Below are positions 28,500 through 40,458 of a stretch of 64,000 nucleotides of DNA, piece after piece. The translations under genes were made by a program, and so were the position numbers. The first letter of the stretch is position 1. The number at the start of each line of letters is the position of its first letter. The notes under the pieces are model-generated. The model made no database searches. It worked only from the letters and a program-made list of their open reading frames with translations, and was not told where the DNA came from. The DNA comes from a phage, in the sequence record NC_100327.1; one strand, written 5' to 3'.

Positions 28500-29412
28500 C
28501 AGGTAGTCTATCTGCTCCCATTCGAACTGTGTCGTTTATGTTCGGGCAAGGTCGCTAGTCTTGCCCCGCCATTTTCAGGCAGCTGCATGTCTCCATGCAG
28601 ACCAGACTATATCTTATGAATGTGCAAATACTCTGCCGCTCTAAGAATAGTTTCCTCATCCTCTTGGAAGAAACCTAAAGCTCTGTTGCATTTATCACAA
28701 AGCAACCCTCTTACAGCACCAGTTTTATGGTCATGATCAACACAAAAGAAATCTCTGTACCCTTGCGTCCTATACTCATCAAGAGATATTCTACAAATGG
28801 CACACTTATGATCTTGATCTGAGAGTAGACGATAGTATTCATCTTTTGTTATGTGAAATTTCTTCTCAATCTGATAAAACTTTTCACACATCTTACACCT
28901 GTTCGTAACCAGATATACTTTACCATAGTCACGTTTTGTGTAAAAACTATCAGCGAGCATACTTTCATGACAAGATTTGCATTCAAAAAGTTCACCTTTC
29001 TTCAGCAAGTCTTGAATAAATAATGCTGCGTCATCTCTCTTAACCATATTTTTGTTTCTACGAGATCCACCATTCCTGTAGTACATATAGCATTCCTTGC
29101 ATGTACCTGAGTATCCATCCTTGCTCTTAGATGATAAAAAGAAATCATCAATAGGTAGAACTCTTTGGCAATCCATACATTTTTTAGTATTACACATTCA
29201 CCCTCCCGTTTCGAATCGCTTGATTCTACGTCTTTCGACTAGTCGTTGAACGTTCATCCTCTCGGATGCTTCGCTGCGGATTATCTAAATTAACACACTG
29301 TTACCATACCTTCGATCTCTCTTCGAAGCCTCTATCATGTTACCATGACAGGTTGGTGGTGTCAATAATAAAGATTTCCCCGCAATTAGGGAGGTTTTAC
29401 GAGAGCTACAAA
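28500..29412 (-). mobile_element. group I intron (first intron in the terminase gene) carrying an Endo VII-type HNH endonuclease ORF; boundaries approximate
   Basis: Minus strand: P AATTGCGGGGAAA (29375-29387), Q AATCCGCAGCG (29272-29282), R GTTCAACGACTAGTC (29237-29251), the ORF, S AAGATATAGTCTGG (28602-28613) overlapping the ORF stop codon. Confidence 0.7.
28607..29197 (-). CDS. HNH / endonuclease VII-like homing endonuclease (intron-encoded)
   Basis: 196 aa, Cys-rich; DHDHKTGAVRGLLCDKCN matches the T4 endonuclease VII / HNH core as I recall it. Confidence 0.75.
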   Translation of the reverse strand: MCNTKKCMDCQRVLPIDDFFLSSKSKDGYSGTCKECYMYYRNGGSRRNKNMVKRDDAALFIQDLLKKGELFECKSCHESMLADSFYTKRDYGKVYLVTNRCKMCEKFYQIEKKFHITKDEYYRLLSDQDHKCAICRISLDEYRTQGYRDFFCVDHDHKTGAVRGLLCDKCNRALGFFQEDEETILRAAEYLHIHKI

Positions 29413-29841
29413 TTAACCCTCATCGAAGCAAACCATGGTGTACTCAAGCCCCTGATGGTTAAGCTTATCTTGTACATACTCCATATGGCAGTATTTTACA
29501 ACAGCTCCCTTTTTGCTTCTATCCCACTTACCAGTGTTCGGATCAAACCGTGGAAAAATGAACTTATGATCCTTCTCTCTGAACTTTGGCTTAATGTTTT
29601 CAGGCAGATCACTATAAATAGCTACTGCTTTAGGCCATAGTCCACCCTCACCTTCCAACTGTGGGGTTGTTCTTCGGAACATAACCACAGAGCTGTGGGG
29701 GTCATCAATAATTTTAAGTGGCATCAACTGCAAGAGGAACGACTTGCCAGACCCTGCGGCACCGCCGATTACCAAAATATCTGCATCGTTTTCTAGGATC
29801 ATCTTCTGCTTTTCAGAACACGGTCCGTAAATCTTAGACAT
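29413..29841 (-). CDS. terminase large subunit, exon 1 (ATPase N-terminal segment)
   Basis: ATG with AAGGAGAG RBS; Walker A (GGAAGSGKS) and Walker B (MVCFDE); frame ends in a stop just after the Walker B motif, where the intron begins. Confidence 0.85.
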   Translation of the reverse strand: MSKIYGPCSEKQKMILENDADILVIGGAAGSGKSFLLQLMPLKIIDDPHSSVVMFRRTTPQLEGEGGLWPKAVAIYSDLPENIKPKFREKDHKFIFPRFDPNTGKWDRSKKGAVVKYCHMEYVQDKLNHQGLEYTMVCFDEG

Positions 29842-30944: not shown

Positions 30945-31021
30945 TGGTCTCCACGGAGTGATTCGAACACTCGACCTCCTGATCCCAAATCAGGCGCTCT
31001 ACCAAGCTGAGCTACGCGGAG
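30945..31021 (-). tRNA. tRNA-Pro (anticodon UGG)
   Basis: Manual fold: acceptor CTCCGCG/CGTGGAG with C1-G72, anticodon loop TTTGGGA, T-loop TTCGAAT, encoded CCA. Confidence 0.8.
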
Positions 31022-31032
31022 TATTTATTATT

Positions 31033-31107
31033 TGGTGGCCCTGGGTGGAATTGAACCACCGTCTGGCGATTATGAGTCGCTTGCTTGAACCTTCCAGCTA
31101 CAGGGCC
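31033..31107 (-). tRNA. tRNA-Met (anticodon CAU; could be Ile-lysidine type)
   Basis: Acceptor GGCCCTG/CAGGGCC, anticodon loop CTCATAA, T-loop TTCAATT, encoded CCA. Confidence 0.7.
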
Positions 31108-31108
31108 A

Positions 31109-31184
31109 TGGTGCTGATGGCAGGACTTGAACCCGCAACCTATTGATTACAAATCAATTGCACTACCGATTGTGCTACATCAGC
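31109..31184 (-). tRNA. tRNA-Thr (anticodon UGU)
   Basis: Acceptor GCTGATG/CATCAGC, anticodon loop TTTGTAA, T-loop TTCAAGT, encoded CCA. Confidence 0.8.
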
Positions 31185-31189
31185 AAAAA

Positions 31190-31288
31190 GGTGCTAGGTG
31201 ATGGAATCGAACCACCTATGTATTCAACGACTACCTCGTCTATTTTCAGGATTAAAAATCCTCGCCCTTGCCAAAGGGCTTACCTAGC
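31190..31288 (-). ncRNA. non-canonical tRNA-like RNA (99 nt; identity unresolved)
   Basis: 7-bp acceptor-like helix GCTAGGT/ACCTAGC, D-like hairpin, canonical T-arm (GGTGG TTCGATT CCATC), but ~20 nt too long with a GGATT-TTT-AATCC hairpin in place of a normal anticodon arm. Confidence 0.4.
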
Positions 31289-31295
31289 TCAGTAT

Positions 31296-31382
31296 GTTGA
31301 CCATGTTGCTAGTCGGCGATGACGACTGTAACATTTGATAATCCGGTTCTGCTTCCGACTTTCGCTTAATTACAAGGTCAAC
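31296..31382 (-). ncRNA. structured small RNA candidate closed by a 7-bp terminal helix (not a canonical tRNA)
   Basis: GTTGACC...GGTCAAC terminal inverted repeat with internal hairpins (AGTCG-N7-CGACT); sits inside the tRNA operon between the element above and tRNA-Ser. Confidence 0.3.
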
Positions 31383-31386
31383 AATG

Positions 31387-31477
31387 TGGCGGAGAGTAAT
31401 GGAATCGAACCATCATCGAGTCATCCTCAACGGGACGGTTTTCAAGACCGCTTGAGCACCATTGCTCCCTACCCTCC
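31387..31477 (-). tRNA. tRNA-Ser (anticodon UGA), class II with long variable arm
   Basis: Anticodon arm CGGTCTTGAAAACCG, long variable arm, T-loop TTCGATT, encoded CCA; 91 nt. Confidence 0.75.
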
Positions 31478-31591
31478 TTTATAAATTATACTGATAATGA
31501 CACTGATTTTCGAGCAGTTAGTGACTAGTATAAACGACGATAAATATCAATGCCATTATCTGTATTATTTATGCATCTAAAAATATAAATT

Positions 31592-31678
31592 TGGTGGGGA
31601 GTGGTGGAGTCGAACCACCCGAGTCGCAATGACAATAGATTTACAGTCTACACCGCTACCTCTACGGGATAACTCCCC
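31592..31678 (-). tRNA. tRNA-Tyr (anticodon GUA), class II
   Basis: Anticodon arm GTAGACTGTAAATCTAT, long variable arm, T-loop TTCGACT, encoded CCA; 87 nt. Confidence 0.8.
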
Positions 31679-31682
31679 AATT

Positions 31683-31757
31683 TGGCACCCCGTACTGGAC
31701 TCGAACCAGTGTCAACGGCTTAGAAGGCCGCTGCTTTATCCACTAAGCTAACAGGGC
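31683..31757 (-). tRNA. tRNA-Arg (anticodon UCU)
   Basis: D-arm GCTTAGTGGATAAAGC, anticodon loop CTTCTAA, T-loop TTCGAGT, encoded CCA; acceptor has two G-U pairs. Confidence 0.75.
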
Positions 31758-34695: not shown

Positions 34696-35250
34696 TTACT
34701 CCCTGCTGTCAATATCAAAACTCATTGCAATACGGTATGCCTCTTCTAATGGTAAGAGTCTCCCCCACACATCCCAACCGACATCAAGCTGCCTGCCAAA
34801 CAACTGTTGTGTGGTTCCGTGAGCATGACCGAACAGTTGGACTGATCCGTGAGGCTTTCTGTTCCACTTTGCAAACTGGTAATGGCTCATACAGATCAAA
34901 TTCTTGTTGTGGCGAAGCTCGTAATAATCTACAACCTCATGACCGAACTCTTTCATAATTCTGACAGTCGTCCTTGTGTCATGGTTGCCACGAACAAGAA
35001 TAATATGTCCGTTCAACATATTTAGAATATCTGGAAGTAAGTTGTTGATATTCTTATCATTAGTGCACGCAATATCTCCCAAGTGGAACACAGTGTCTGC
35101 AGGTGACACAACAGAGTTCCACTCGGCGATGATTCCCGCATTCATACTGTCAAGATTGTGATCATACTGAGATCTGTGTTTTTGACATGAATCAAACTCC
35201 ATGACCCGCTGGTGGAGAAAGTGTGTGTCGCTTGTTACAAAGTATTTCAT
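34696..35250 (-). CDS. calcineurin-like metallophosphoesterase (putative 2',3'/3'-phosphatase partner of the kinase)
   Basis: Motifs DTHF, GDIA and GNHD; start placed at MKYFVTSDTHF (ATG 35250, GAGGA RBS) rather than the track start, which overlaps the kinase gene. Confidence 0.6.
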   Translation of the reverse strand: MKYFVTSDTHFLHQRVMEFDSCQKHRSQYDHNLDSMNAGIIAEWNSVVSPADTVFHLGDIACTNDKNINNLLPDILNMLNGHIILVRGNHDTRTTVRIMKEFGHEVVDYYELRHNKNLICMSHYQFAKWNRKPHGSVQLFGHAHGTTQQLFGRQLDVGWDVWGRLLPLEEAYRIAMSFDIDSRE

Positions 35251-35257
35251 ACATTCC

Positions 35258-35668
35258 TCATTTAAGTTTAATGCAGTTTTTAAGCTGGCGTTCCATACGA
35301 TCCACAACCTTGTCTGGAACATCATGAATGCTTTTATTACCGTGGCGGTTTTCAACCACGATCACGGTATAACTATACCCATGACTGATTGCCATGTCAA
35401 CATATTCCTGCACATGTTTTTCTTTTGTAAACGTATTACTTACCACGATACGGTCGTATCCCATACGCATCATATCTTCTACGTTATCTTTGCACCATTT
35501 TGCTGCGAGTGTTACTTTACTTGCATCCCAGTTGTAATTGCCGTCATCGTCATACCAGAACATGTCGTTCTCAAAATGTGGATACAGACCCTCTAAAGAT
35601 AGCGCATTTGCCAGTGTTGATTTGCCAGACCCTGGTAGACCACGCACGATATATAGCATTTTAGACAT
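35258..35668 (-). CDS. polynucleotide 5'-kinase (P-loop kinase domain, T4 Pnk N-terminal-like)
   Basis: Start at ATG 35668 with GGAGGG RBS; Walker A GLPGSGKST; size and motifs resemble the kinase half of T4 Pnk. Confidence 0.6.
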   Translation of the reverse strand: MSKMLYIVRGLPGSGKSTLANALSLEGLYPHFENDMFWYDDDGNYNWDASKVTLAAKWCKDNVEDMMRMGYDRIVVSNTFTKEKHVQEYVDMAISHGYSYTVIVVENRHGNKSIHDVPDKVVDRMERQLKNCIKLK

Positions 35669-35768
35669 AGTGACCCTCCGTTTTAATTTCAACGGTAGTA
35701 TACCTAACTGTTTTGTTAATTTCAAGTGTTGACACTAGGTTATTTGTGTGGCAGGATAGACTGACAAA

Positions 35769-36704
35769 ATGACAAATGAGGAACATATAATGAAGTATTT
35801 TAATGCAGACGACCTAGTTGACAAAGGTCTTGTAACCAGTAGGTATTACCCAGATCTCGGGTTAAAGATCTATAAATATGCTAGAAAAGTATTTTACAAC
35901 AATTTATGGCATTTGTCCCCTCGTTTACTGGAGTGCCGAGGCATTGTTGTAGGTAATGAAGGAAATGTTGTGGCATGGCCCTTCACAAAAGTGTTTAACT
36001 TGGGAGAAAACTCCACCAACCTGCCTGACAATAAGCTTGTGACTGCGGTAGAGAAAAAGAACGGATTCCTTGGTGTGGTATCATCTCATAAAGGTGACCT
36101 ATTGTTCTCAACAACCGGGTCTCTTGATTCTCCATATTGTAACCTTGCAAAGGAAACCATCCAAGAGCAATGTGGTAATTTAGATCTTATCAAGAAGGTT
36201 ATGGGCAATGAAAACATGACATTCATGTTTGAAATTTGTCACCCTTCAGATCCGCATATTGTTCAAGAAGACCATGGCGCATATTTGATAGGTTGCAGAT
36301 ATAATGATTCTGGAATAATGCTACCAGAAGCCGCTTTAGATGGGATTGCCAAATACCTTGGTGCAAAACGTCCTCACACTGTGCGTGAAATTCCGTTCAG
36401 CTATGCAAAAGAGTTAGCTGCAGAAACAAGAGGTGAAGGATATATGATTCGTAAGCCTTACTACCCTTATGATCTGCAGTTGAAGATCAAGTCTCCATAC
36501 TATCTGGCACGAAAGGCCGTAATGAGGGGTAAAGCTTGGAAGATTTGGGATGATGATATCTTTAAACGTGTTGACGAAGAGTTTTACGGCATGGTAAACT
36601 TCATTCGTAACAACTACACAGAGGATGTATGGAACTGCCTCCTGGAGCAGGAACGCCGTGAGATACTTGACTGCTATTTCCACAACGAGGACTATATGCA
36701 ATGA
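35769..36704 (+). CDS. RNA ligase 1 (T4 RnlA-like)
   Basis: Conserved blocks shared with T4 Rnl1 as I recall them (LLECRGIVV, KVFNLGEN, nucleotidyl-transferase lysine motif EKKNGFLG); sits opposite the kinase/phosphatase genes. Confidence 0.6.
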   Translation: MTNEEHIMKYFNADDLVDKGLVTSRYYPDLGLKIYKYARKVFYNNLWHLSPRLLECRGIVVGNEGNVVAWPFTKVFNLGENSTNLPDNKLVTAVEKKNGFLGVVSSHKGDLLFSTTGSLDSPYCNLAKETIQEQCGNLDLIKKVMGNENMTFMFEICHPSDPHIVQEDHGAYLIGCRYNDSGIMLPEAALDGIAKYLGAKRPHTVREIPFSYAKELAAETRGEGYMIRKPYYPYDLQLKIKSPYYLARKAVMRGKAWKIWDDDIFKRVDEEFYGMVNFIRNNYTEDVWNCLLEQERREILDCYFHNEDYMQ

Positions 36705-37051
36705 AGAAGTTGATTGTGTGGCTGGATGACTTGAGAGATCCGTCAAATTACGAGCTCCAAGACGCTGTTTGGCTAAAGAATTCCTCCGAGTTTATAGATT
36801 TTATTAACGATAATAGAAAGCTCTACAGACGCGTTTCTGAGTGGCACATGGACAACGACCTTGGAGAGTTGTTCGAAGGGTACGATTGCCTATCTATGTT
36901 GGAGGAAAAATTTGTATTTGGTAAGCCCCCTGTAGTTGACAACGTGAAGATTTTCGTGCATACTTCTAACCCATCAGCGGCTCGTAAATTCATGCTTGCA
37001 GCTGACTCGTTTAAAAAGTTTGGAATAGAGATTAAACAAAACATCTACTGA
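36701..37051 (+). CDS. hypothetical protein, small Rossmann/receiver-like fold
   Basis: 116-aa ORF translationally coupled between the RNA ligase and the Sir2-like gene. Confidence 0.3.
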   Translation: MKKLIVWLDDLRDPSNYELQDAVWLKNSSEFIDFINDNRKLYRRVSEWHMDNDLGELFEGYDCLSMLEEKFVFGKPPVVDNVKIFVHTSNPSAARKFMLAADSFKKFGIEIKQNIY

Positions 37052-37059
37052 GGACACTT

Positions 37060-37821
37060 ATGCGACGACTGATTATTATCTCCGGTGCTGGTTTGAGCGC
37101 TGAATCTGGTATTCCCACTTTCCGATCTGGTAGCACTGCAATGTGGGAGAATTTCAGCATCGATGAGGTGTGCAACATCCACACCTTTGCCAAGAACTAC
37201 TACAAGGTGCATGACTTTTACAATGCACGTCGTGTAGCTCTAGGCGGTGTTGAGCCTAACCTTGCACATCTTCGGATCGCTGAGTGGTATTCCCGCTGGT
37301 CTGGTCGTGTGATCAACCTTACCACCAATGTAGATGATTTGCTGGAGCGTGCGGGTGTAAAACATGAAGATATTTTACATGTTCACGGGTATTTGCCAGA
37401 AATAGTCTATGAGGACGACGAAGGAAGTAACGTCATTAAGGACATTGGATACTCTGAGGTAGATGCAGGAAAGTATACCTGGGTTAAGCCTAATGTGGTG
37501 TTCTTCGGAGAAGTAGCTCCGAAGTATACAGACATGTATGACCTGTTGACTTCTCTTACGAGTAATGATATGGTTATCCTTGTAGGGTGTTCCAACACAG
37601 TTATCAATTTTAACTGGGAGCTATTCCCTGCCTGCAATAAGGGAACCAAACTGCTGATCGTTAACAAATACGACTCACAGCAGCTAGGGGAGAATGGTAT
37701 TTCACGTAGTGATATTTACCAATATGAGGATCGCGGCATCCCAGTTTGGTTTAACGGGGCGGTTGATGCTTTCTCTGATAAAACATTCATTGAGACCGTA
37801 GAAAACTTTATGGAACTTTAA
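37060..37821 (+). CDS. Sir2-family (sirtuin-like) NAD-dependent protein
   Basis: Sirtuin motifs GAGLSAESGIPTFR, TTNVD, HVHG and VVFFGE; 253 aa. Confidence 0.65.
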   Translation: MRRLIIISGAGLSAESGIPTFRSGSTAMWENFSIDEVCNIHTFAKNYYKVHDFYNARRVALGGVEPNLAHLRIAEWYSRWSGRVINLTTNVDDLLERAGVKHEDILHVHGYLPEIVYEDDEGSNVIKDIGYSEVDAGKYTWVKPNVVFFGEVAPKYTDMYDLLTSLTSNDMVILVGCSNTVINFNWELFPACNKGTKLLIVNKYDSQQLGENGISRSDIYQYEDRGIPVWFNGAVDAFSDKTFIETVENFMEL

Positions 37822-37834
37822 AAGGAGACCTTTA

Positions 37835-38548
37835 ATGCTGAATACCAAATTAATTGACAACCTGGAAAAACTGTCCCAACCTGAAAACTACCTTTGGTCT
37901 GCCAACTGGGTGGAAAACTGGAACCGTGTGGCAGCTAAAGTGAAAAAATCATACACACCATTCGAATTACAGCTTAGCTTCATTGAGGAAGAGTTCAATG
38001 AAGTTTTGGAAGAGCTGGAGAAAGGTGATGGCGGAGATCACCTGCTAAAAGAGGCCTGCGATCTTCACGTTGTCACAAGTTATGCCGCTTATCTTGTTAA
38101 TGATAATCACGAAAAGTGGTCAAACCTGTTTGATAATCCACAGGGTCTTAAGTTCAAGATCGGTGAGTTCTATGATACACTGATCGCTGCGAAAAACACC
38201 TCTAAGCAAAAAGCGTCCGCTTACCGCTTAGCAGAGTTGTCAACAGCTTTGCTGTTCCAGCTTCGCGGCGATGTGTGCGGGATGATGCGTAAGGTTCTCA
38301 AATCGAATGACAGCAAGTTTGCACGGGTCAACCATCTACAGTATTCACACGGTGCCAGTGCAGATATGCCTGCTGAACAACTCATCGAGTTGGAGATTAA
38401 AGATCTTGAGCGTCGTTTTGGTGGTCGCTACGAAGGTTTCGTTGCTAAAGAGGAGTTCTACAACGGCAATAAAGTTATTATATTCCTTGACAGTAAAGGT
38501 AAGATTATGAAGCCTTCGAGCTTCAAGGATGTAACAGAGTATATTTAA
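37835..38548 (+). CDS. MazG-like nucleotide pyrophosphohydrolase domain protein
   Basis: N-terminal EExxE...E...D helix motif (FIEEEFNEVLEELEKGDGGDHLLKEACDL); C-terminal half of unknown function. Confidence 0.45.
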   Translation: MLNTKLIDNLEKLSQPENYLWSANWVENWNRVAAKVKKSYTPFELQLSFIEEEFNEVLEELEKGDGGDHLLKEACDLHVVTSYAAYLVNDNHEKWSNLFDNPQGLKFKIGEFYDTLIAAKNTSKQKASAYRLAELSTALLFQLRGDVCGMMRKVLKSNDSKFARVNHLQYSHGASADMPAEQLIELEIKDLERRFGGRYEGFVAKEEFYNGNKVIIFLDSKGKIMKPSSFKDVTEYI

Positions 38549-38554
38549 CAACAT

Positions 38555-38581
38555 AGCCGGGATTACCCGGCTTTACTTATT
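38555..38581 (+). terminator. rho-independent terminator
   Basis: agccggg atta cccggct hairpin followed by a T-rich tract, directly after the stop of the 37835..38548 gene. Confidence 0.6.
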
Positions 38582-38610
38582 ATGGAAAGTATGCAGTGAG
38601 GTAGTCAGTT

Positions 38611-38919
38611 ATGTACAAGCATTCCAGAGATCTTGAAAAAGATGCTGTGTTTGGCGACCAGATGAAGGAGCTGATCAAACTTATTGGTAGAATGGAAGAT
38701 AAGTTTGACACTAAAATCTACATCGATAGCAAGGTCTTCAACCACAAAATATGGACAAATGTGTGTGTTGGGCTACATGGTGATAAAGATATTGTAAATT
38801 TGGTTGTAATAAAGTTCATAGTGTGGCAGAATAGGACTATACGTTATTACGACCCACACTTACTTGTTTATCCTATAAAAGACCTACTACAGAAGGAGGA
38901 CTGCAATGCCGTTATTTAA
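38611..38919 (+). CDS. hypothetical protein
   Basis: 102-aa ORF with an upstream GAGG RBS. Confidence 0.3.
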   Translation: MYKHSRDLEKDAVFGDQMKELIKLIGRMEDKFDTKIYIDSKVFNHKIWTNVCVGLHGDKDIVNLVVIKFIVWQNRTIRYYDPHLLVYPIKDLLQKEDCNAVI

Positions 38920-39175
38920 TCTTGCTAAACCTGTAGAAGCACATCAGTTTGACGGAAGCTCTTCATCAGTATCTGATCTGCAACGGTGGATTGATACAGG
39001 TGTGTTTACATCGTCACCTGTTCGGACCAGAGATCTTCGTCGCATGTGTGAGCTTGTCGAGCCTTTTGGTAACCTTGTCTTGTACCAGGGAGATTGGCTA
39101 GTTGACTTTATGGGAGACTGGTTGGTAATGAGTAAAGAAGAGATGTTTAAAATTTTTAAGGAAGAGGCCGAGTAA
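38906..39175 (+). CDS. hypothetical protein
   Basis: 89-aa ORF overlapping its neighbours. Confidence 0.3.
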   Translation: MPLFNLAKPVEAHQFDGSSSSVSDLQRWIDTGVFTSSPVRTRDLRRMCELVEPFGNLVLYQGDWLVDFMGDWLVMSKEEMFKIFKEEAE

Positions 39176-40458
39176 TGCATCAGATCAAAACAACACTGTA
39201 CGCACTGAATAAAGATGGCAGCTACCAACAGTGGAAAGTATTCACGGATGGTGATAAGGTTATCGTAGAGTTTGGCAAGCTTGATGGTAAACTGCAGTAC
39301 AAAGAGACGGTATGCACACCTAAGAACGTAGGTCGTGCCAACGAGACTACAGCTGAGCAACAGGCCGAGCTTGAGGCTATCAGCAAGTGGGAAAAACAAG
39401 TCCGTCTGGGGTATGTTGAAAACATGGAAGATTGCGAGCAGGGTGTTGATCTTTTACCCATGCTGGTGCATGACTACCTGAAGCGTGGCAAGGCACTTAA
39501 ATTACCTTGCTGGATCTTGCGTAAGTTAGATGGCCTTCGTCTGCTTGTTGTTTTCCAAAATGGTGAGCCTAAATTTATTTCCCGTGGTAATAAGTCCTAC
39601 CCTATTCAAGGAAAGCTTTTAGAGCAACTTCGTTCTTTCCATTCTACCACTGGGATTAAACAACTTGATGGGGAACTATACATTCATGGTCTTCCTTTGC
39701 AGAAAATAGTGTCTCTTGCTAAACGGTGGCGCACACAGGAAGAGATTCAGGCCGAGATCGATAAAGACTATGAGGCAGATAAAAAACGCCGTCATGCAGC
39801 AATTAAGGCAGGCTTATCAACATACAAAAACTTCAACAAGGTAGATATTCCTGTCGATGTTGAGCCTGTTCGTGATGATTTGCGTTACGGTGGGTACTGT
39901 AGCTACGATCTGGAGTATCACATTTTTGATATTCCTAGCGACAAGGTGTGGTGGGATCCAGAAACAGAGTCTGGACGCTGCAAGGATCTTATGGATGCAG
40001 AGGATACCGTTACCACTCTGATGCTTGACCATATCAAGGTTGTTGACGCAGAGCTTGCGTACACAGTTGATCATTGCGAAGAATCTGTTGGTATATTCAT
40101 GTCCGAAGGATATGAAGGTACTATCATGCGTAATTTCTGCGGTAAATACGAGTACGGTCAGCGAACATCTGAAGCATTGAAATGGAAAAAGTTCAACGAC
40201 GCAGAGGTGAAAGTTATTGACGTTGAGAAAGATAAGAATGATGAAGGTGTTCTTATCTGTGTTGACAAGGAAGGTGTTATTGTTAAAATGAAGATGAAAG
40301 GCACGCACGAGGAGCGTAGCTATGACAGGATGCAGGAAATGATCGGCAAGTTTGTCACCTTCAAATATCAATCAAGGACAGAAGACAACAACTACCAATT
40401 CCCTGTCGGTATCTGCGTCCGAAATGTTGACCCAGACACTTGGGAGGTTCTGGAATGA
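39175..40458 (+). CDS. ATP-dependent DNA ligase (KxDG nucleotidyltransferase)
   Basis: Motif I RKLDGLR and motif III-like LDGELYIHG; 427 aa. Confidence 0.55.
   Translation: MHQIKTTLYALNKDGSYQQWKVFTDGDKVIVEFGKLDGKLQYKETVCTPKNVGRANETTAEQQAELEAISKWEKQVRLGYVENMEDCEQGVDLLPMLVHDYLKRGKALKLPCWILRKLDGLRLLVVFQNGEPKFISRGNKSYPIQGKLLEQLRSFHSTTGIKQLDGELYIHGLPLQKIVSLAKRWRTQEEIQAEIDKDYEADKKRRHAAIKAGLSTYKNFNKVDIPVDVEPVRDDLRYGGYCSYDLEYHIFDIPSDKVWWDPETESGRCKDLMDAEDTVTTLMLDHIKVVDAELAYTVDHCEESVGIFMSEGYEGTIMRNFCGKYEYGQRTSEALKWKKFNDAEVKVIDVEKDKNDEGVLICVDKEGVIVKMKMKGTHEERSYDRMQEMIGKFVTFKYQSRTEDNNYQFPVGICVRNVDPDTWEVLE

Follow-up and report, generated by a model that had tools for sequence, protein, structure and literature searches.

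The 64,000-nucleotide stretch of phage DNA analyzed here (sequence record NC_100327.1; the whole stretch is referred to as the window) carries a gene for a Sir2-family protein (sirtuin) that lies among genes for putative RNA-end-processing enzymes. Six components, a phosphoesterase, a kinase, an RNA ligase, a protein with a cREC domain, the sirtuin (Sir2), and a MazG-like protein, are all inside 3.9 kb. Two of these are encoded on the minus strand: a calcineurin-like metallophosphoesterase (34696 to 35250), which is a candidate 2',3'-cyclic/3'-phosphate end-healing enzyme, and a stand-alone P-loop kinase (35258 to 35668), which is a candidate RNA 5'-OH polynucleotide kinase. A divergent intergenic control region (35669 to 35768) separates them from a rightward, plus-strand operon, the first gene of which encodes a T4 Rnl1-family ATP-dependent RNA ligase (35769 to 36704). 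This is followed by the genes for the 116-amino-acid cREC protein (36701 to 37051); for Sir2, a single-domain, zinc-less, class-III-derived sirtuin of 253 amino acids (37060 to 37821); and for a 237-amino-acid all-alpha protein of the MazG/dimeric-dUTPase-like pyrophosphohydrolase superfamily (37835 to 38548). An intrinsic-terminator-like hairpin (38555 to 38583; AGCCGGG-AUUA-CCCGGCU, then UUUACUUAUUA) closes the operon. An earlier note on this DNA, made from the sequence alone, had described the last three genes (36701 to 38548) as a cluster ending in a terminator. Its coordinates are exact, the three open reading frames (ORFs) are conserved genes in 120 phage genomes rather than chance ORFs, and a GC-rich hairpin with a U-rich tail does follow the third gene. 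The trio holds as a group of three genes, but not as the complete cluster, since the context of the ligase, kinase, and metallophosphoesterase had been overlooked.

The genes of the rightward operon are closely spaced. The ligase stop codon and the cREC start codon share a 4-nucleotide ATGA at 36701 to 36704. An 8-nucleotide gap separates the cREC stop codon (37049 to 37051) from the Sir2 ATG (37060), with a GAGGA Shine-Dalgarno sequence overlapping the stop codon, and a 13-nucleotide gap separates Sir2 from the MazG-like gene, which has a strong AAGGAG Shine-Dalgarno sequence before its start. A terminator scan places the hairpin at 38555 to 38572, with 7 bp, 6 of which are G-C pairs, and a U-rich tail. 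The minimum free energy of the hairpin is -13.3 kcal/mol (z = -3.2), and 2 of 200 shuffled sequences fold equally well. The ATGA overlap, the 8- and 13-nucleotide gaps with their Shine-Dalgarno sites, and the single terminator support an operon and agree with the earlier placement of Sir2 in one operon with both of its neighbors. Translational coupling of Sir2 to the 116-amino-acid ORF, which had also been claimed, is plausible only, given the 8-nucleotide gap; the true ATGA overlap is that of the ligase and cREC genes, outside the three-gene interval.

The ligase gene has an alternative start at 35790, which has GAGGA before it. The longest ORFs of the two leftward genes extend to 35725 (kinase) and 35355 (phosphoesterase), and the starts used here were inferred from the lengths of annotated homologs, not from the homologs' start codons: 35668 (MSKMLYIVRGLPGSGKST) for the kinase and, from the homolog in the related phage MaxBurger, 35250 (MKYFVTSDTHF) for the phosphoesterase. 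The GC skew switches sign in the divergent intergenic region. On the minus strand, a sigma-70-like site at 35725 to 35697 (TTGAAA-17-TATACT, 10/12) is a candidate promoter, while a TTGACA at 35730 on the plus strand is without a good -10 element.

Over region 35700 to 39200, identity is 97.6% with phages Mangalyan and EdH4 and ~97.5% with rV5_ev isolates. At a threshold of ≥90% identity (90 to 98%), the region is matched in 120 deposited phage records, in which the same genes are annotated. The source phage is a Vequintavirus, that is, an rV5-like, strictly lytic E. coli myophage. Approximately 18 to 25 GenBank records labeled "Campylobacter phage" (e.g., MG065677.1, A13b; host C. jejuni) are 92 to 93% identical to this Vequintavirus region, and these labels probably represent host misassignment or contamination.

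The ligase matches Pfam RNA_lig_T4_1 (PF09511) at 1e-14, with 55.4 bits against a cutoff of 28.3, and PHROG 562 at 2.8e-66. Single-sequence Protein Data Bank (PDB) searches with the ligase and with the kinase gave nothing useful. A profile of 9 ligase homologs matches the T4 Rnl1 structures 2c5u, 9do4, and 5tt6 (2c5u at 2.1e-19 over residues 49 to 284), and no Trl1 is among its PDB matches. The motif I lysine K96 (KxNG) and G99 are invariant among the homologs. The score against the NCBIfam T4 RnlA equivalog, 38.7 bits, is below the cutoff of 242. Judging by homology and the motif I lysine, we conclude that the ligase is of the T4 Rnl1 type and is not a T4 RnlA equivalog. We also considered a Trl1-like ligase that requires a 2'-PO4 and dropped this assignment because only T4 Rnl1 was matched.

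The kinase matches Pfam AAA_33 (1.8e-10), Zeta_toxin (1.1e-4), and PHROG 505, "polynucleotide kinase" (7.6e-10). Its MaxBurger homolog is annotated "polynucleotide kinase," and in Mydo-type phages the kinase gene is directly upstream of Sir2. The phosphoesterase matches Pfam Metallophos_2 (1.9e-6) and Metallophos (7.1e-6), PHROG 547, "phosphoesterase" (1.6e-52), and PDB entry 1xm7 (1.2e-10), and its MaxBurger homolog is annotated "putative phosphoresterase." This gene accompanies Sir2 in 13 diverged viral loci.

The 116-amino-acid protein had been recorded as an unknown, Rossmann-like ORF, and a profile search had been suggested. That search gave an identity: the protein matches Pfam PF20274, cREC_REC ("cyclic-phosphate processing receiver domain"), at 2.9e-15, with 57.2 bits against a cutoff of 27, and PHROG 1479 at 6e-35. 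The label "unknown" is therefore superseded, while "Rossmann-like" was a fair description because the receiver fold is Rossmannoid. When 1.84 billion representative proteins were scanned in full with HMMER, cREC relatives turned up in 124 clusters (E < 1e-3), mostly stand-alone proteins of 100 to 130 amino acids. Seven residues are invariant in 40 diverse members (W7, D9, D10, D51, L54, G60, and H87), and R12, P14, W24, D53, G55, and N90 are nearly so. These conserved residues make up a receiver-type acidic pocket plus a histidine that is not present in ordinary receivers. The neighbors of the cREC gene are the ligase and Sir2, and a histidine-kinase sensor is not among them. One natural cREC-Metallophos fusion (P0240) appears to tie the cREC and phosphoesterase activities together. 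A single-sequence PDB search with cREC gave chance matches only, with no sequence-related solved structure. The cREC domain was defined in a 2021 jumbo-phage paper from the Aravind group (PMC7824862), and its activity is a prediction only, since cRECs "remain experimentally uncharacterized" (PMC9503650). Based on the profile match and the acidic residues, we conclude that the 116-amino-acid protein is a cREC with a predicted cyclic-phosphodiesterase activity.

Sir2 matches PF02146 at 5.1e-27 (95.4 bits against a cutoff of 24) as a single domain, in agreement with the earlier description of a Sir2-like protein with no extra domains. The residues G9, A10, G11, S16, G17, F21, and R22 (GAGxSxxSGxxxFR) are invariant in 17 members of its clade, as are N90, D92, the catalytic H109 (HxHG), the FGE motif, and the class-III FYNxRR motif (Tyr/Arg). 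PDB searches match SIRT5 and CobB (7e-21). The AF2 model has a predicted local distance difference test (pLDDT) score of 87, and its best structural match is E. coli CobB (TM score, 0.75 to 0.85; 26% identity). These observations bear out the view of Sir2 as a genuine sirtuin-family enzyme that binds nicotinamide adenine dinucleotide (NAD+). The hallmark motifs noted earlier are present with respect to NAD+ binding and catalysis, but the zinc-ribbon cysteines are not. There are no cysteines between H109 and K143 in Sir2, and likewise none in its rV5-, T5-, Mydo-, and phi92-type relatives or in relatives from Marinobacterium. CobB and two jumbo-phage relatives keep all four zinc-ribbon cysteines. 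In the AF2 model of Sir2, a short beta-hairpin replaces the zinc ribbon. Members of the zinc-less clade also have TTNVD in place of TQNID (Gln to Thr) and GCSNxVINF in place of GTSxxVxP, both of which are canonical in CobB and the two jumbo-phage relatives.

The best score of Sir2 against the NCBIfam CobB-type equivalogs is 122 bits, against a cutoff of 243 (NF001753). The other equivalogs of this type give 56 to 103 bits against cutoffs of 221 to 395, so that all are below cutoff. The defense-type SIR2_2 family (PF13289) is also below cutoff (E = 0.059; 13.9 bits versus 24.5), and PADLOC at E ≤ 0.01 gave no defense-model match for Sir2, cREC, the MazG-like protein, or the ligase. Sir2 is, from its motifs, a divergent class-III (CobB/SIRT5-like) sirtuin that has kept the NAD+ and catalytic motifs and lost the zinc ribbon. 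The lack of the ribbon, the altered motifs, and the scores below cutoff indicate that it is not an ordinary CobB, yet its NAD+-binding and catalytic residues are invariant. Compared with CobB and human SIRT5, Sir2 has in common the GAGxS motif, the FYNxRR dyad, the N/D pair, the catalytic histidine, and FGE, but it is only 26 to 31% identical to them, is without the zinc cysteines, has the altered TTNVD and GCSNxVINF motifs, scores under the cutoffs, and is in a different genomic context.

The MazG-like protein matches Pfam PRA-PH (PF01503) below threshold (E = 0.086; 13.7 bits, cutoff 21.3) and has no Pfam match above threshold. Three homologs that are 52 to 54% identical to it have a precomputed PF01503 match. 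It matches PHROG 671, "nucleotide pyrophosphohydrolase," at 1e-21, and the metal-binding motif EExxE...ExxD is invariant. A PDB profile search found no match. A fold search with the AF2 model, which is of moderate quality (pLDDT, 72), gives dimeric dUTPases as the nearest folds, and the protein carries a C-terminal beta-hairpin extension. Compared with dimeric dUTPases and DR2231-like pyrophosphatases, it is ~10 to 15% identical and has an extra C-terminal beta-hairpin/Lys-rich segment. Its four-helix all-alpha fold and metal motif place it in the superfamily, while membership in a Pfam family (PF03819 MazG or PF01503) is not obtained. The label "MazG-like" given to it in the earlier note is valid at the superfamily level only.

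A pattern scan of IMG/VR gave 56 loci with sirtuin relatives of 42 to 94% identity, the flanks of which were analyzed by hidden Markov model, jackhmmer, tblastn, and Pfam scans. In 13 loci from myophages of 135 to 153 kb, the phosphoesterase, ligase, kinase, Sir2, DNA ligase, and MazG-like genes occur together, and cREC was detected in 8 of these. Proteins of these 13 loci are 26 to 60% identical to those of the window, and gene order and strand differ from the window. In 28 loci from T5-like phages, T5 among them, a gene ≤1.2 kb downstream of Sir2 encodes a HAD_SAK_2 "Swiss-army-knife RNA repair" phosphatase, and in one jumbo-phage locus an Rnl1-family ligase is encoded two genes upstream of Sir2. 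Thus, an RNA-end-processing gene lies near the sirtuin in 42 of the 56 viral loci, in three architectures, which supports an RNA-end-processing context. The remainder are 8 phi92-like loci with only a methyltransferase-like gene and genes for unknown proteins, and 6 loci with no recognizable RNA-end-processing gene near Sir2.

Relatives of Sir2 occur in 975 of 50,697 phage records (~2%), mostly from Escherichia and Salmonella phages. KptA homologs occur in 98 phage records, none of which is from an Escherichia or Salmonella phage. The largely complementary distributions of KptA and the Sir2 clade in phages are compatible with functional displacement.

On a phage-like contig that is binned with a Bacilli metagenome-assembled genome and that has genes for endonuclease VII and NrdD (L082; 5086 to 6528 and 6989 to 7723), the gene for a nicotinamide phosphoribosyltransferase (NAMPT) stands two genes upstream of that for a zinc-less Sir2 of this clade, which suggests that nicotinamide freed by the sirtuin is recycled. 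On a 608-kb jumbo-phage contig, an arginase/deacetylase-family protein (PF00491, 8.7e-76; L055, 5818 to 6723) is encoded between an Rnl1-family ligase and a zinc-containing Sir2 relative.

The neighborhood in the window has been described before, in phage V5, as a computational prediction (Iyer, Burroughs, Anantharaman, and Aravind, 2022, Viruses 14:1977; PMC9503650). In that prediction, the ADP-ribosyltransferase chemistry of the sirtuin strips an RNA 2'-phosphate with NAD+, as KptA/Tpt1 does, and partner enzymes are proposed to open the cyclic phosphate or to process ADP-ribose>p. A MazG-superfamily protein is listed as a component, in parallel to a Nudix domain in jumbo phages. The prototypes of this type-2 neighborhood are Escherichia phage V5 and Proteus phage Mydo. 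The gene set in the window is identical, the source phage is of the same genus as V5, and we see no substantive difference. With all six genes present, the locus is, as judged from its gene content, the type-2 sirtuin RNA-repair neighborhood of Iyer et al. Since both the neighborhood and the hypothesis are in print for this phage genus, the finding was already known, and the earlier statement that the function of the trio is not obvious from sequence is outdated. In the literature on phage sirtuins, Vequintavirinae Sir2, and T5 Sir2, we found genome notes and two comparative papers from the Aravind group only, and no experimental work. What we add is the loss of the zinc ribbon in this clade (the jumbo-phage relatives keep it), the invariant histidine of cREC besides its aspartates, the similarity in fold of the "MazG" protein to dimeric dUTPases, and the occurrence of the sirtuin without RNA-repair neighbors in phi92-like phages and Marinobacterium.

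The locus encodes one enzyme for sealing, one 5'-kinase, and two candidates for 3'-end healing, along with the sirtuin and the pyrophosphatase. The cREC domain, the Rnl1-type ligase, and the divergently encoded kinase and phosphoesterase place the trio in an RNA end-healing and sealing module. In the scheme that we favor, the module would counter host RNases whose cleavage generates 2',3'-cyclic-phosphate and 5'-OH termini, among them anticodon nucleases and RNase toxins, and the RNA would most likely be tRNA. A phage tRNA cluster that includes tRNA-Lys(UUU), 3.4 kb away, counts in favor of the scheme. Going by family membership, the kinase would phosphorylate the 5'-OH; cREC, as a metal-independent Asp/His enzyme, and/or the metallophosphoesterase would open the 2',3'-cyclic phosphate; and the ligase would seal the break. 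The sirtuin might then remove the residual 2'-phosphate with NAD+ in a KptA/Tpt1-like manner, in which a phosphate oxygen would attack C1'' of NAD+ and nicotinamide would be released. The ADP-ribose>p by-product could be cleared by cREC, the phosphoesterase, or the pyrophosphatase, which would replace the Nudix domain of the jumbo-phage version.

We consider it probable that the trio belongs to an RNA-repair module. The combined reading, that the three genes form the distal portion of an RNA break-repair module of the phage and that the sirtuin acts on RNA ends in an NAD+-dependent step, which would most specifically be Tpt1-like, seems to us evenly balanced between right and wrong. The specific chemistry, Tpt1-like removal of a 2'-phosphate by the sirtuin, is a tentative proposal that we think has the smaller share of the probability.

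T4 Pnkp and Rnl1 counter the PrrC anticodon nuclease and, like the locus described here, combine an Rnl1-family ligase with 5'-kinase and 3'-end phosphoesterase functions (predicted in our case) in a lytic coliphage with tRNA genes. Unlike in T4 Pnkp, the kinase and phosphatase of the window are separate proteins of different folds, a P-loop kinase and a calcineurin-like phosphoesterase, the latter in place of the Pnkp HAD phosphatase. With ~305 to 311 amino acids against 374, the ligase lacks some of the C terminus of T4 Rnl1, and it is far under the T4 RnlA equivalog score, and T4 is without a cREC, sirtuin, or MazG-like partner. With KptA/Tpt1, known from fungal and plant Trl1-Tpt1 tRNA splicing and as bacterial KptA, the sirtuin has in common an association with a ligase, a kinase, and a cyclic phosphodiesterase. 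The folds are unrelated, however, a sirtuin Rossmann fold here and an ADP-ribosyltransferase-like fold in KptA/Tpt1; the 2'-phosphotransferase activity of the phage protein is a prediction; and the associated ligase is Rnl1-like, not of the 2'-PO4-requiring Trl1 type.

Several observations weigh against the proposed repair scheme. A kinase, a phosphoesterase (with or without cREC), and a ligase make a complete T4-style set. Repair by such a set would leave no 2'-phosphate behind, and the need for a Tpt1-like step is therefore not obvious. T4 Rnl1 has no requirement for a 2'-PO4, whereas fungal and plant Trl1 does, and the ligase of the window resembles Rnl1. Sir2 retains the class-III FYNxRR and FGE motifs, which are typical of protein deacylases. 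The nearest folds of the pyrophosphatase are dUTPases, and in Mydo-type phages its gene is 2 to 3 kb from Sir2, beyond the DNA ligase. Since the rV5-type and Mydo-type loci are homologous, part of the shared linkage may be inheritance rather than selection. In the 8 phi92-like loci (L032 to L035, L037, L038, L040, and L048), the genes before Sir2 are always the one for a conserved ~220-amino-acid protein (PHROG 8514) and the methyltransferase-like gene. Pfam and PHROG searches found nothing RNA-related among these neighbors, and inspection of two of the proteins by eye found no 2H motif. Finally, when one genome of each bacterial and archaeal species was scanned for the nearest cellular relatives, a chromosomal zinc-less sirtuin was found in ~20 Marinobacterium species (L062 to L083), with TTNVDD, no cysteines, and 43 to 50% identity to the phage clade. 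Its neighbors are metabolic genes that vary by species, without RNA-repair genes: a Glu/Leu dehydrogenase, an SNF transporter, and GGACT in one species and a pyruvate:ferredoxin oxidoreductase-like gene in another. The phage clade may have arisen from this cellular sirtuin, or Marinobacterium may have acquired its sirtuin from the phage clade. The idea of a phage-only sirtuin clade was dropped because Marinobacterium chromosomes carry these zinc-less relatives.

In the principal competing explanation, the sirtuin would be a protein deacylase or protein ADP-ribosyltransferase of the conventional NAD+-dependent kind that remodels host or phage protein acylation, with the RNA-repair genes as mere neighbors. 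The suggestion in the earlier note that the cluster might modify host proteins thus survives as a live rival. The closest sequence and structure relatives of the sirtuin are the protein deacylases CobB, SIRT5, and Sir2Af, the catalytic histidine, FGE loop, and FYNxRR motif are invariant, "deacetylase" is the GenBank annotation everywhere, and the phi92-like and Marinobacterium sirtuins have no RNA-repair neighbors. However, the protein is without the zinc ribbon, which contributes to the cleft that binds the peptide, and its second peptide-binding loop has a rewritten sequence; it is far under every CobB-type equivalog cutoff, the E. coli host already encodes CobB, and the sirtuin adjoins RNA-end enzymes in three independent architectures. 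All things considered, we regard a protein-modifying role as unlikely, although it deserves to be taken seriously. If the sirtuin instead used an RNA-linked substrate that is acylated, for example N-acetyl-aminoacyl-tRNA made by GNAT toxins or tRNA N4-acetylcytidine, its role would still be a form of tRNA rescue. GNAT toxins acetylate charged tRNAs, and such a substrate would suit a deacylase-type active site that is intact and belongs to a locus for RNA/tRNA repair with a tRNA cluster close by. This idea is pure inference. Nothing in the gene context pointed to acetyltransferases or peptidyl-tRNA hydrolase, and the substrates of the partners (cREC, HAD_SAK, phosphoesterase, and kinase) are in every case phosphate ends rather than acyl groups. 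We think it quite improbable.

A different view of the MazG-like protein, that it is a dUTPase-type deoxynucleoside triphosphate sanitizer for DNA synthesis, outside the repair chemistry, would make the "trio" partly an accident of gene order. We lean only mildly away from it. No other dUTPase is annotated in the related MaxBurger genome (all but ~22 kb of which was covered), which encodes thymidylate synthase and ribonucleotide reductases. The distance of the gene from Sir2 in Mydo-type phages, past the DNA ligase, fits this view, and the gene is not in the T5-type or jumbo-phage Sir2 neighborhoods. Against this, the MazG-like gene and Sir2 have an operon and a terminator in common in the window, with a gap of 13 nucleotides, and the gene is ≤~4 kb from Sir2 in 13 of 13 rV5/Mydo-type loci. 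The protein is also the module component that Iyer et al. set in parallel to the jumbo-phage Nudix (PMC9503650), and its fold does not reveal substrate specificity, the AF2 model being only moderate. The earlier note had raised depletion of NAD+ as in abortive infection, and an NADase that depletes or manipulates host NAD+ or nucleotide signals, whether in an abortive-infection-like manner or as counterdefense, would agree with the intact NAD+ site and with the link to NAD+ turnover on the one phage-like contig that has a relative near NAMPT; cREC and the pyrophosphatase could also process soluble ADP-ribose derivatives (PMC9503650). We rejected this reading, and consider it highly improbable, on the absence of a PADLOC match and the SIR2_2 score below cutoff. 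Sir2 is of the classical PF02146 type near CobB and SIRT5, its recurrent partners are RNA-end enzymes, and NAD+ depletion is no gain for a strictly lytic phage. The phage countermeasures in the NARP3 paper rebuild NAD+ (PMC13464706). Neither that paper nor one on bacterial Schlafen proved relevant to the sirtuin gene itself.

Returning to the repair scheme, in its strongest form the zinc-less sirtuin would be the first sirtuin with a nucleic acid substrate, an NAD+-dependent RNA 2'-phosphotransferase; cREC would be a new metal-independent Asp/His cyclic phosphodiesterase on a receiver fold; and a dUTPase-fold pyrophosphatase would destroy ADP-ribose>p, which would amount to yeast-style tRNA repair against anticodon nucleases in rV5- and T5-like phages. 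This full version is possible but doubtful. If the prediction is true, the 975 phage records noted above, which include T5 and the BASEL Vequintavirinae, have an RNA-acting sirtuin, sirtuin chemistry reaches phosphate acceptors, and an NAD+-consuming step joins phage counterdefense against tRNA-cleaving immunity (PrrC, RloC, PARIS, retrons, and Cas13). Phages, hosts, and assays suited to testing the prediction are all available, so a test would be easy. The finding itself is a rediscovery of genes that are annotated in >100 near-identical genomes and of a published neighborhood and hypothesis.

Past the terminator, two plus-strand genes (38611 to 38919 and 38906 to 39175) encode proteins of 102 and 89 amino acids (PHROG 7684 and 14585, respectively). 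Relatives that are 31 to 47% identical accompany the block of ligase, kinase, Sir2, and DNA ligase genes in 11 to 12 of the 13 Mydo-type loci, and these proteins may be uncharacterized components of the module. They are followed by an ATP-dependent DNA ligase gene (39175 to 40458, plus strand). A DNA ligase gene is always ≤~2 kb from Sir2 in the window and in loci L023 to L053, and it adjoins Sir2 in Mydo-type phages. This constant proximity means that the block may be a general nucleic acid end-repair island and not an RNA-only one.

A cluster of seven phage tRNA genes (30945 to 31757) is 3.4 kb to the left of the repair locus. It includes tRNA-Lys(UUU) together with Pro(UGG), CAU, Thr(UGU), Ser(UGA), Tyr(GUA), and Arg(UCU). 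The tRNA-Lys(UUU) gene (31192 to 31288, minus strand) has ~26 extra nucleotides in the variable region that form a class-II-like hairpin arm (GACGA-GGUAG-UCGUU), which is unusual for tRNA-Lys. It scores 35.5 bits in the Rfam tRNA model and is misread by ARAGORN as having a 4-base anticodon. PrrC and PARIS classically target tRNA-Lys(UUU), so the odd arm might alter nuclease recognition. An Rfam scan of 28 to 42 kb found no Y-RNA-like or other repair-associated noncoding RNA near the repair genes. A possible group I intron on the minus strand (28583 to 29425) matches the full-length model RF00028 with 47 bits, just under the gathering threshold of 50 (E = 1.7e-9), and a 196-amino-acid ORF inside it (28607 to 29197) may encode a homing endonuclease.

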